Below the pieces are notes generated by a model. That model was not told the origin of the DNA. It did no database searches and worked only from the letters and a program-made list of their open reading frames with translations. The translations under genes and the position numbers were made by a program. A stretch of 61,205 nucleotides of DNA, counting the filler, from Collodictyon triciliatum (lineage: Eukaryota): NCBI GenBank assembly GCA_043381765.1. It is 9 parts of 9 records of this genome, joined end to end, with 100 filler letters (N's around TTAATTAATTAA, not from the genome) between each part and the next. Parts side by side here need not be neighbours in the genome. Positions count along the whole stretch, not along the records: positions 47,696 to 54,400 come from JBHJMP010004298.1; 8 more parts are not named here. One strand, given 5' to 3'. Positions 47,825 to 54,221 of the stretch are shown here, piece after piece; position 1 is the first letter of the stretch; each line of letters begins with the position of its first letter.

Positions 47825-50800
47825 CGTTTCCTCCCGAACTTTTCGATATGCCTCTGGAGGAGATCAGTCTTCCCACTGGTATCTCATTTCCAAAGCATTT
47901 TGCCGTCGAGTACGCGCGATGTTTAAAAACCTCCTTTGCAAACCCCCTGGACAGACCATTGGTTATTCTGCAAAAGCTGAAAGGCATCGACGGGCATGAT
48001 GAATCACTCACAACTTTTTACGAAAAATACATCATCGCCAAGGCCGTGGAAATGAATGAGTCATCCAAGAGAAACAACGAACCTTACCGCATCCCCCCAG
48101 ACACCATTTTTTTCGCCACCCAGGCTGACGCACTCGAGTTCCTCTCACACCCCCTCATCGTGAATGAAGTTCGCGATATTTGGTATGCAGAGTCAAACCT
48201 TGATGCAGTAGTCACAGAAGACCCAGAAACAGGCAATAAGAGAGGATATGCCGATATCTTTCAGTCTTATCTCGAAGTCATGATTACTCAACTGCCAAGC
48301 TTCGTATCAAGTCCTGCAGCAAAGTTTATATCCTCTGGAATAAGTTTCGCTGGATTCATCATATTGACCATGCTACTCTTGGTCATACTGAACCAGTCAA
48401 ATCACGTATCCTCCTACTACGCCAGCAATCAGCTGCTATCCCATTTTGCTGTCGATGACGTAGTCGTTGACCAGGACTTCTGGAACTACATAAACACCAC
48501 ATTTATAAATCAACTCCAGGAGGGTCCCAAAGTGCCTTCCAGTAAAGCATCTGAATATGACCTCACCGTGCTACTCCCATCTTACTACCGGGTCATCTAT
48601 CCAATACGTTTGAGACAACTTCGTGTGAAAAAAAAGGCGTGCTCTAACCTCCAACCAAAACGTCCAAAAGGAACAGAAAAATGGGAATGCGCTCCTCCTT
48701 TTACAAGCAATTATGAATCAGACAGATCGTACGGGCCCAATGGCACATTCAAATGGATTGAAAACAATCGCTTAGAAAGGTTACCCATCATGGGTATTTC
48801 GGGCATCTGGTACCCTGGTGGAGGCTTCATCGAACTACTGGAGGCTGACCCCGTCGCAATGTCCAACCGCCTCACTTACCTCGAGGAAAATAACTGGCTT
48901 GATCTGCAAACTAGAGTTATTTTCATCGAGTTTATCGTCGTCTCAGATAATATAGACTCTGCTATTGAAGTAATGACCATGTTTGAGTTTCTGGGCTCTG
49001 GAGGCATAGTCGTGACCCAAAAGGCGTCTCCCTCCACAAAATACTTTTATTCTTTCGGCATGGAATCATTCTGGATCATCCTCATCTTGCTCGCAATTTA
49101 TGCATTTGGTCTCATCCTCTCTGAGGTGGAGCGCTTTTATCACAGTCGACTACGTTACATCATTACCATGTGGTCCCTCTTGGATGTCTTTATTGCAACA
49201 ATCGTCCTTGCCATTCTTGTCATACAAATCTATCTCGCCAGTTTAAGCTACAAGCTCACAAACCCAGACCAGACAGACGACTTTACCGATTACTATGGTG
49301 TATCTTCATATGCCAACATCCAACGCGGACTCTTTGCAATTCTCAGCTTTTTTGCATGGTTTAGATTGTTGTACTTTATCACTCTCTATCCAGCTTTTGG
49401 ACTGATGCTCCGAATCATTGGTGCGATGGCTGGCCAAATGGCTCGATTCTTGATTCTCTTGTTTTTGATCATTATCAGCTTCGCATCCACTTTTTACGCG
49501 CTGTTTGGCTCTACTTTAATAGGCTACTCCTCCACACGCCTAGTAATATATACCGTCGGTCAATTTCTCTTTGGTAACTTTAATCTGGAAGAAATCGATG
49601 CAGAGAATCCAATCATGGGTCCCATCGCATTCTTTCTTTTCATGTTTCTTTGTGGTGTATTGTTGCTCAACTTTTTGGTCGCCATCCTCAGCAACACATA
49701 CGAAGATATTCAAGCCAATGCAAAAAAACAGTACAACAAGATATTTGCCGAAATTGTTTTGAAAACAAATGACGAGTCTGCACCTCCTCCTTTAAACATC
49801 TTCCGTCCATTGTATGTTTACATATTCAAGAGTTGGCTCTCTTTCCTGTGGAAACATCGTTTCCCTATTCAAATATACGTCACGTCCATTGTTCGGGACC
49901 GCGCGTGGTGTTGGTCCAGTATTCATGACCCGGTGGAGGTATATACCAGATCAAAGAGAAAGCACTTTCATGTATTCTTTCCAAATTTTGAGAATTACAA
50001 CGATGTATATGGTGGAATCCCCCTGACGCTATGGATTGATATTCTGGTTGCTGTTATTGTTTGCTTTATTATGTTAATCCTGCAAATCCCTATGGGAATA
50101 TTTGTCTGGTTCATGTCCTTCTACAACCCACGAACCAATATTTCCAAGGAGAAGTCTACACCCTTGATCGATCACACTGTCGCTACTAATGTTGAAAAGG
50201 ATAACATTCCACCCGCTTTCTTCCTTTTGCACAATATTTACCGATTCTCTGTCCTCATCTGGATAATATTGTCGATGGTTTTTTGGATCATGTGCTTCTT
50301 TGTTAGATATGTGATAATCATATTCAAGGTGAATGACATTGGTTTATATAAAACTTTGCATATCTTTGTTTCTTTTTTTTTTTAAATACATAAAAATTAT
50401 ATGAATATGCAATCTTACAGTTGACATTTTATCTCTAACACTTAACCTTTTTACATCACCATCTATTTCGTTTTCTGATCGCACTCCAACAGAGGTCGAG
50501 AGGTTTGTCGTCCCCTTGTTCAATTTATTTATTCATTTATTCTATACAAGACCTCCCTCCCCTATGGATTTATTTCTTAATTTCTATATTTACTTTGCAT
50601 GTAGTATCCGACGTCGCAATTGATTTCGAACCAAACTCGTGTCAAAACTCCAAAGGCTTCTATATTTTTACAGGGGTAAATGAACATTCAATACTTTCTC
50701 CAAAATTGAAGCTAAGCCAACAGACCATTGGATACTTTGAGTTGGAGGTTATCTATCCGGGTGATATACTGGTTGGTGTTCGGACAAGATCTAGTCTAGA

Positions 50801-53800: not shown

Positions 53801-54221
53801 TATTCGACTTTGAAGATTGTATACCGATAATTTCTACTATTTTGATTTTTGAAAATAAACTAACATAATCCCATTTCCCCCCCCCCCCTTTTCTATCAAT
53901 CGCATTATAGGGGTAAGTCACCTGAATCGAAATCACTATTACTTTTCTACATGGCCTTCATTTGTTGATTTGTTCGTTCATCCATTCATTTCTTGCTATC
54001 ATTTGCAATTTAGATCCCCACCTCTCAATAATCAAGAAAATGACTGAGGAAGACGCAAACTTCGTCGAACGCCACGGGCACCACCTAATCAACTATCGCA
54101 AGATGCGTCAACTCTATGAGGAGGTCTCTTTGGTGATGGAAGCCGTGCACCAAACCGACGAAGGGTCAATGCAGGCGGACTTACTTGATTTCCTCACCAA
54201 CAATATATTCTTAACTGAAGG
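47825..54221 (+). CDS. Polycystin-2-like cation channel - SPRY - RasGEF(REM+CDC25) fusion protein, both ends incomplete
   Basis: PKD channel: IRLRQLRVKK..C, YPGGGFI, LEENNWLDLQTRVIFIEF, six TM helices, LLNFLVAILSNTY. SPRY: GYFELEV...IGCGYD...VYF...IRLNFG. REM: IFLLTFPLFAKP...LEERY...IRAKVIHL. CDC25: VATHITYLDRQVF, HNFNSLFAVITG, PPKIPYL, LINYRKMR. The exons can be joined in frame. Confidence 0.8.
53382..53478. repeat. (TC)n intronic microsatellite
   Basis: Direct tandem repeat. Confidence 0.95.

Follow-up and report, generated by a model that had tools for sequence, protein, structure and literature searches.

Can a polycystin-type cation channel and a guanine nucleotide exchange factor (GEF) for Ras-family GTPases be parts of one and the same polypeptide? 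The question is raised by a locus of the freshwater protist Collodictyon triciliatum (GenBank assembly GCA_043381765.1) on the contig JBHJMP010004298.1, which we analysed within a stretch of 61,205 nucleotides (nt), hereafter the window, that joins nine parts of nine records of this draft assembly. On its + strand the contig carries a chain of exons (47825-54228, counted along the window) coding for a channel of the PKD2/TRPP type, SPRY domains, and a putative REM domain and the CDC25 domain of a RasGEF. We find that the channel and the GEF parts are on one mRNA and in one frame, which makes the product a channel-enzyme fusion, or chanzyme, by architecture. In all likelihood this is a single gene, cut at its 5' end, that encodes a membrane protein with the order leucine-rich repeats (LRRs, in the missing part)-pre-S1 helices-PKD2/TRPP channel-two helices-SPRY-SPRY-linker-REM-CDC25. 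To judge from the sequences, a single transcript of the flagellate Diphylleia rotans (protein P0151) encodes these domains in the same collinear order, and what the two species share would be a real and conserved TRP-type chanzyme with a new class of enzyme, its activities being predicted.

The setting of the locus bears directly on the question. In the window, contigs of some 6.7 kb each follow one another with linkers of the form N44-TTAATTAATTAA-N44 between them, and adjoining contigs need not adjoin in the genome. These linkers (6718-6817, 13534-13633, 20349-20448, 27161-27260, 33971-34070, 40787-40886, 47596-47695 and 54401-54500) have stops in all six frames; the last two flank the contig with the gene, which begins at 47696 and ends at 54400. 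Since the whole channel-SPRY-RasGEF chain lies inside this one contig, which is free of any N, no artificial join crosses the gene.

Parts of the stretch were detected in eight public runs, lake and freshwater metatranscriptomes among them. Four public runs (X1-X4) were aligned to the contig, and all four gave spliced contigs at 95% identity or more, most of them at 99% or more. Two of the runs, X1 and X2, bear no label more specific than 'RNA?'; as introns are missing from their contigs, the material is cDNA. The 20 loose letters that end X1 record 1 at 48022 presumably represent a template-switch (SMART-type) oligonucleotide tail, which would fit a low-input cDNA library. As defined by the RNA, the chain opens with a large internal exon at 47825-50328, to which Pfam, the PDB, the structural model, Foldseek and hydropathy assign the pre-S1 helices, S1, the TOP domain, S2-S6 with the pore, the post-S6 helices and two extra helices, and passes through a 10-nt microexon at 50493-50502 (X4 record 14; flanked by cag and GTTTGT) into the exon at 50605-51436. 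The latter codes for the first SPRY domain and the first half of the second, as seen in Pfam, the model, fold matches, the family alignment and hhalign; the second half, a Ser/Arg-rich linker and the start of the putative REM (the RasGEF N-terminal motif) are coded at 51557-52158 (X1 record 3; joint 52158/52339 in three runs). REM is carried further by the exons at 52339-52420 (joints in X1, X2 and X4; aligning to P0151 1872-1944) and 52508-52721 (joints in X1 and X2, and alignment to P0151), and a short exon at 52846-52917 (joints in X1 and X2) lies between REM and CDC25. The first CDC25 exon, 53012-53107 (joints in X1 and X2), aligns with the beginning of the P0151 RasGEF domain (2026-2201), the second is at 53184-53363 (X1 record 6, X2 record 9), and the last joint, as read directly from the RNA, connects 53533-53745 to 54013-54228.

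Joined in this order, the exons give 5021 nt and one frame of 1672 codons whose sole stop is the terminal one; the other two frames hold 84 and 101 stops. Nine of the ten introns are bridged by contigs, and the tenth, 51436/51557, is known from a 9-letter loose end of one contig. Independent RNA contigs of at least three studies trace the same chain. The exon chain on the + strand is real, far beyond chance, and it is spliced as a single open frame in the RNA.

The splice joints hold two peculiarities that would mislead a reading of the genomic sequence alone. In the raw alignment, X4 record 14 (198 nt) covers 50178-50328 (donor AAG/GTGAAT) and resumes at 50603 with eight letters between; joining 50178-50328, 50493-50502 and 50605-50641 reproduces it exactly. 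The 10-nt microexon shifts the frame by one base, as the SPRY exon needs, and removes the stop at 50383-50385. The initial annotation had proposed a collinear + strand chain joining the channel, SPRY and REM-CDC25 parts on one polypeptide, which is borne out by the RNA joints and by the collinear Diphylleia transcript protein, though two of the junctions that it proposed were only half right. For 50341/50605 the acceptor is as proposed and the donor is not, the RNA using 50328 via the microexon; for 51424/51557 the acceptor likewise stands, while the RNA donor is 51436, where the SPRY exon ends in CA/GTAAGA and the loose end of X1 record 3 equals 51428-51436. The third, NLEK/RIIDPK, is seen in RNA as 52917/53012.

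Near the 3' end, X3 record 13 and a loose end of X1 display an apparent TT..TA joint at 53745/54013. Enumeration yields only one solution with two GT..AG introns that produces the observed RNA: a 2-nt microexon, GG, at 53911-53912 between introns 53745-53910 and 53913-54013, preceded by a strong pyrimidine tract and followed by a perfect GTAAGT. The two introns, of 166 and 101 nt, mirror those of 164 and 102 nt around the 10-nt microexon. We consider this 2-nt microexon most likely; the third CDC25 exon would then be 53533-53744 (X1 record 6, X3 record 13), and the last one, with the catalytic-helix motif and the stop at 54226-54228, would be 54014-54228 (X3 record 13), where the alignment to the P0151 C-terminus is gap-free. 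A non-canonical TT..TA intron was rejected, as no end-pairing stem is found (z-score +2.3) and the canonical solution exists. Microexons of 10 nt and probably 2 nt constitute a trap for gene prediction in this group, as predictors would miss both.

At the other end of the gene, X2 record 7 has 249 further letters joined upstream of the acceptor at 47824/47825 that are not in the contig. Thirty of these letters have no match elsewhere in the window with up to three mismatches and, when read by eye, are in frame and resemble the residues just before position 585 of P0151. Position 47825 is therefore an internal acceptor rather than the start of the gene, which the contig boundary truncates at the 5' side. 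The N-terminal part is on another contig, and an LRR region like that of the ortholog would be coded by upstream exons there. Residues 1-584 of P0151 are leucine-rich repeats, to which the contig of the window does not reach. Both this truncation and the roughly 580-residue LRR of the ortholog had been missed in the initial annotation. Hydropathy finds no membrane-like span (mean Kyte-Doolittle of 2 or more) in P0151 ahead of S1 at 748-776, and hence the LRR of P0151 is probably cytoplasmic.

What, then, do the joined exons encode? The channel lies in a long open frame at 47800-50385, and in the open reading frame (ORF) given to Pfam (47845-50382) Polycystin_dom (E 1.4e-18; 67.5 bits against a cut-off of 23.6), PKD_channel (E 2.6e-23; 83.1 bits against 22.4) and Ion_trans (E 7.5e-11) are matched, placing the TOP/polycystin domain at about 48472-49017 and PKD_channel at about 49072-49707. 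Among solved structures, human polycystin-2 (E 5.2e-38) and PKD2L1 are the closest in sequence. An AlphaFold model built on 73 relatives has a mean predicted local distance difference test score (pLDDT) of 83 and a predicted template-modelling score of 0.76; because the ORF modelled was unspliced, the final 18 residues (829-846) come from intron sequence and do not belong to the protein. In Foldseek, ranks 1-38 are chains of PKD2, PKD2L1 and PKD1 complexes with target-normalised TM-scores of 0.82-0.84 (PKD2, 0.83). The part is thus modelled with a PKD2-like fold: S1, a large extracellular TOP domain, and S2-S6 with pore helices. Hydropathy agrees in giving S1, a loop of 210 residues (TOP), S2-S6 and, after a long helical stretch, two hydrophobic spans (spliced-protein residues 726-766 and 797-835; about 50017-50124 and 50212-50328), for each of which the model has a single long helix (36 and 44 residues, pLDDT 60-75). 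The region ahead of S1 (47845-48340, ORF residues 17-154) is all-helical at pLDDT 94-97 and 52% identical to Diphylleia, and matches no Pfam family.

The tail begins with the SPRY domains. The first, at about 50733-51071, is a weak Pfam match on the exon of the window (E 0.0069, below the cut-off); the Diphylleia paralogs pass at E 1e-9 to 8e-22. The AlphaFold model of the exon is of moderate confidence only (mean pLDDT 54.5, about 65-80 over residues 1-155); the fold matches listed for it in the PDB are all SPRY domains or complexes that contain them, namely TRIM9, RanBP9/10, DDX1, Ash2L and Gid complexes (E 2e-7 to 4e-5), and the model has a SPRY fold. The alignment of the family tails contains two SPRY-like units, whose profiles match each other in hhalign with a probability of 96.8% (E 2.2e-10, 129 columns). 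When the SPRY exon was searched against longer proteins, none of 1734 candidates reached E <= 0.001. The Ser/Arg-rich linker that follows, presumably disordered, has one RRxS and four more RxxS sites.

For the GEF module, the exons of the window were given to Pfam singly and not as a spliced whole. The stretch 53530-53730, from the third CDC25 exon, matches RasGEF (PF00617) on its own, with 29.1 bits against a cut-off of 23.1 (E 1.1e-6); the other three of the four CDC25 exons, tested singly, give no RasGEF match. In P0151 the domain (residues 2026-2201) scores 59.9 bits (E 4e-16) and covers positions 2-180 of the 181 in the profile. Among solved structures, the Cdc25 domain of RasGRF1 (2ije, E 6.7e-11) comes closest to that of the ortholog, and RasGRP1/2/4 are matched as well. 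Both species retain the PYL...EE core of the CDC25 helix, with the aromatic residue of P-Y-L and the E-E pair; these would be the equivalents of the catalytic helical-hairpin residues F929, L938 and E942 known from work on SOS and RasGRF. Pfam detects no DH-PH, C1, EF-hand or IQ elements in the window exons or in P0151. Of what had been proposed for the encoded protein, the PKD2-type channel with TOP and six membrane helices is upheld by the Pfam and fold evidence, the extra hydrophobic helices by hydropathy and the model, and the pairing of one clear with one degenerate SPRY by the fold matches and the hhalign comparison; the divergence of the CDC25 domain stands as well.

With the channel ORF as query, an exhaustive HMMER search through 1.84 billion representative proteins returned 3767 hits at E <= 0.001, and the best six of these are all Diphylleia rotans EukProt transcript proteins (E 1.6e-269 to 1.7e-79). 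All six have LRR, Polycystin_dom and PKD_channel, and five have SPRY as well. The top match, P0001 (P032529, Trinity DN6842), has a longer isoform of 2237 amino acids, P0151 (EP00002_P032528), in which Pfam finds LRR, Polycystin_dom, PKD_channel, SPRY and RasGEF. The spliced protein of the window (1-1668) aligns to P0151 585-2237 at 39% identity, without a gap across both microexon joints and ending four residues before its own end. Identity is highest over the channel (52%), with 32-34% for the SPRY domains, 30% for REM, 31% for CDC25 and 16% for the linker. Selection acting on the folded parts, among them the GEF, would be expected to leave this pattern; the contrast between CDC25 and the linker fits a working domain better than a decaying one. 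Over the channel ORF the ortholog is 49% identical, with the other Diphylleia paralogs at 24-31% overall, and on this measure P0151/P0001 clearly belong to the same subfamily as the window gene. Diphylleia has at least six LRR-PKD2-like channel paralogs (P0001-P0006, P0151, P0152, P0154), five with the tandem-SPRY tail and one only with RasGEF. P0001 and P0151 are 99.9% identical over 2105 residues and P0001 ends inside CDC25; it may be an intron-retaining or GEF-less isoform.

Beyond Diphylleia, the searches among long proteins, which are limited by word sharing and length bands, found the architecture in no other organism. P0151 1860-2237 recovered only its own cluster among proteins of 1230-3915 amino acids (one of 3389 candidates), and the channel part gave five hits among proteins of 1482-4230 amino acids, none listing PF00617, P0001 because it is cut within CDC25. 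In Pfam runs on seven further long PKD hits none had SPRY or RasGEF, and three had ankyrin or LRR_6. Large N-terminal ankyrin-repeat arrays occur on the long PKD2-like proteins P0076, P0050, P0040 and P0137, the last with LRR_6 in addition, and judging from such sequences repeat scaffolds ahead of polycystin channels seem common among the hits. Full-text literature searches gave no description of a polycystin/channel-RasGEF fusion; the two Diphylleia isoforms are unannotated and, going by these searches, undescribed, and the LRR-PKD2-SPRY-SPRY family likewise appears undescribed and lineage-restricted.

Several observations weigh against reading the locus as one gene for one working fusion. 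The RNA contigs are 151-629 nt long and none of them spans the whole gene, so that continuity is a chain of joints, of which 51436/51557 depends on its one 9-letter loose end. The Diphylleia proteins derive from a Trinity assembly, a procedure that can fuse neighbouring transcripts, though an uninterrupted frame of 2237 codons makes this less likely here. That the fusion is an artefact, be it a chimeric contig or two neighbouring genes misread as one, could be argued from the artificial concatenation of contigs in the window and from the draft state of the assembly. Against this, the gene lies in one contig without N, the RNA contigs of at least three studies follow the same exons, and a second species has the same domain order on one transcript; we regard an artefact as scarcely credible. 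A subtler alternative has the locus yield two products: chiefly a channel-only form that retains intron 1 and terminates at 50385, and a fused message that is minor or read-through. The unspliced channel frame indeed continues for only 19 codons to that stop, the channel-to-SPRY joint is covered by a single contig (depth 2.9, one metatranscriptome), and the Diphylleia isoforms differ at their 3' ends, P0001 being cut within CDC25 and P0151 of full length. Moreover, large parts of the channel exon (49040-49935) are without RNA cover in the four runs, which leaves room for such an isoform. The intron 50329-50492, however, is covered in none of the four runs, though contigs cannot show absence; between the two species the tail stays in frame for more than 800 residues, at 30-34% identity, which is unexpected for a by-product; and the SPRY tail is common to five of the six Diphylleia paralogs. 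On balance a predominantly channel-only locus is very unlikely.

The remaining alternatives grant the fusion and deny one of its activities. As has been proposed for PKD1-type proteins, the polycystin part might be a non-conducting scaffold that anchors the signalling tail. The Asp of the pore motif LGD has a role in PKD2-type Ca2+ permeation, which is a property of PKD2 and PKD2L1 and does not define the family; in the HMMER alignment FGN stands opposite this motif here, and the Diphylleia ortholog has FGE, so that the position of the Asp is taken by Asn in Collodictyon, where the acidic pore residue is not kept, and by Glu in its relative. A scaffold is nevertheless distinctly unlikely, given that S1-S6 and the pore helices align to PKD2 gap-free near the pore, that the channel is the best conserved part (52%) with its region modelled at pLDDT >90, and that two residues of the pore region, Gly577 and Pro593, hardly vary among the 73 relatives. 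Alternatively, the REM-CDC25 unit might lack exchange catalysis and act as a docking site or scaffold for a GTPase or another partner. The module is divergent, as seen in the P0151 1860-2237 search that returned only itself and in the Pfam match to just one of the four CDC25 exons; REM falls below the Pfam threshold, RasGEF_N being weak even in the ortholog (P0151 1872-1944, E 0.034, 14.8 bits against a cut-off of 28.3), to which stretch the window REM residues align at 30% identity; and the catalytic helix has one extra residue between P-Y-L and E-E relative to RasGRF1. Yet the ortholog domain spans nearly the entire RasGEF profile at E 4e-16, the PYL...EE core is kept in both species, and identity in CDC25 is about double that in the linker (31% versus 16%). 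A dead GEF is unlikely on these grounds.

Elsewhere in the window, seven long open frames on the other contigs, at 15726-17081, 8081-9283, 6979-7878, 14652-15491 and 11126-11881 on the + strand and at 45738-47273 and 44027-44671 on the - strand, were compared with Pfam and none had a match at E <= 0.001. Runs of N form gaps within contigs at 3870-4655, 42394-42865, 43011-43353 and 56528-56986. The preceding contig ends in a (GAAAA)n-like run (47370-47595), the contig of the gene starts with a poly-C run (47697-47730), and (AAT)/(ATT)-type runs are present on the next one (55400-55560). Within the gene, a (CT)n run of about 100 nt at 53380-53480 lies in the intron 53364-53532.

If the locus is, as we favour, one gene for a working channel-GEF fusion, its likely mode of action can be sketched. 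Each extra helix would cross the membrane once, and two such single passes would leave the SPRY-RasGEF tail in the cytoplasm, on the same side as the end of S6; a Lys/Arg cluster coded at and around the 10-nt microexon would fit the positive-inside rule. The protein is probably tetrameric like PKD2, in which case each channel would bear four membrane-tethered GEF modules. These would load GTP onto a Ras- or Rap-like GTPase beside the channel, and as the GEF would be permanently at the membrane, its control should lie within the protein or in phosphorylation of the linker rather than in recruitment. Inhibition might be exerted by the SPRY domains, the linker or the LRR and be lifted by gating or ion flux. 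The initial annotation had envisaged a direct coupling of ciliary or mechanical Ca2+ entry to the activation of a Ras-family GTPase; with FGN in the pore motif, Ca2+ entry is doubtful and not to be assumed, and a monovalent cation current or a purely conformational signal would be as likely. A phagotrophic flagellate would most likely use such a protein to couple a contact, mechanical or ciliary stimulus to local, Ras/Rap-driven actin remodelling. More tentatively, and as a possibility that we hold to be short of probable, channel gating might directly switch the attached Ras/Rap GEF, with the cytoplasmic LRR as a Ras-GTP-binding feedback arm, so that the protein would be a self-contained touch- or flow-to-GTPase transducer triggering prey capture in collodictyonids. 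The analogy for an LRR that binds Ras-GTP comes from SHOC2 and yeast adenylate cyclase.

How does this protein compare with known systems? It shares with P0151 the PKD2-like channel, the two extra helices, the two SPRY domains, a putative REM and CDC25, and differs in that P0151 is complete, with its roughly 584 N-terminal LRR residues, and has the pore Glu where Asn is found here. With PKD2 and PKD2L1 it shares the TOP domain between S1 and S2 and the six-helix TRP-type pore domain. In PKD2 the cytoplasmic tail is short and carries an EF-hand and a coiled coil; the window protein instead has two more membrane helices, a tail of 840 residues with the order SPRY-SPRY-REM-CDC25, an LRR in its ortholog and FGN in place of LGD. 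The established TRP chanzymes are the channel-kinases TRPM7 and TRPM6, and TRPM2 with its NUDT9-H domain. Like them, the window protein unites a TRP-superfamily channel with an enzyme-type domain on the cytoplasmic C-terminal tail; in contrast to them, it belongs to another TRP subfamily and carries, by its sequence, a small-GTPase GEF instead of a kinase or Nudix domain. A putative REM followed by a CDC25 homology domain would be the arrangement of RasGRF1, RasGRP1/2/4 and SOS. Those, however, are soluble exchange factors that adaptors, lipids or Ca2+ bring to the membrane, whereas here the GEF is covalently built into a membrane channel.

Parallels for the non-enzymatic parts are also at hand. 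The ryanodine receptor has SPRY in a cation channel, and polycystin-1 combines extracellular LRRs with a polycystin channel-like part; as in the family described here, SPRY or LRR is on the same polypeptide as a cation-channel domain. The ryanodine receptor, however, is not a TRP or PKD channel, and the LRR of PKD1 is extracellular, unlike the probably cytoplasmic one of P0151.

Channel-enzyme fusions are rare, and TRPM7 and TRPM2 have taught much about the crosstalk between ion flux and enzymatic activity. That the present fusion has been kept in two species at about 40% identity argues that selection kept both activities joined. On the usual reasoning about gene fusions, it suggests that polycystin channels and Ras/Rap signalling are functionally connected, a connection that is debated in polycystic kidney disease. 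Should the reading of a gating-switched GEF prove true, this gene would be a 'Rosetta stone' fusion, marking polycystin channels and Ras-family signalling as old functional partners.

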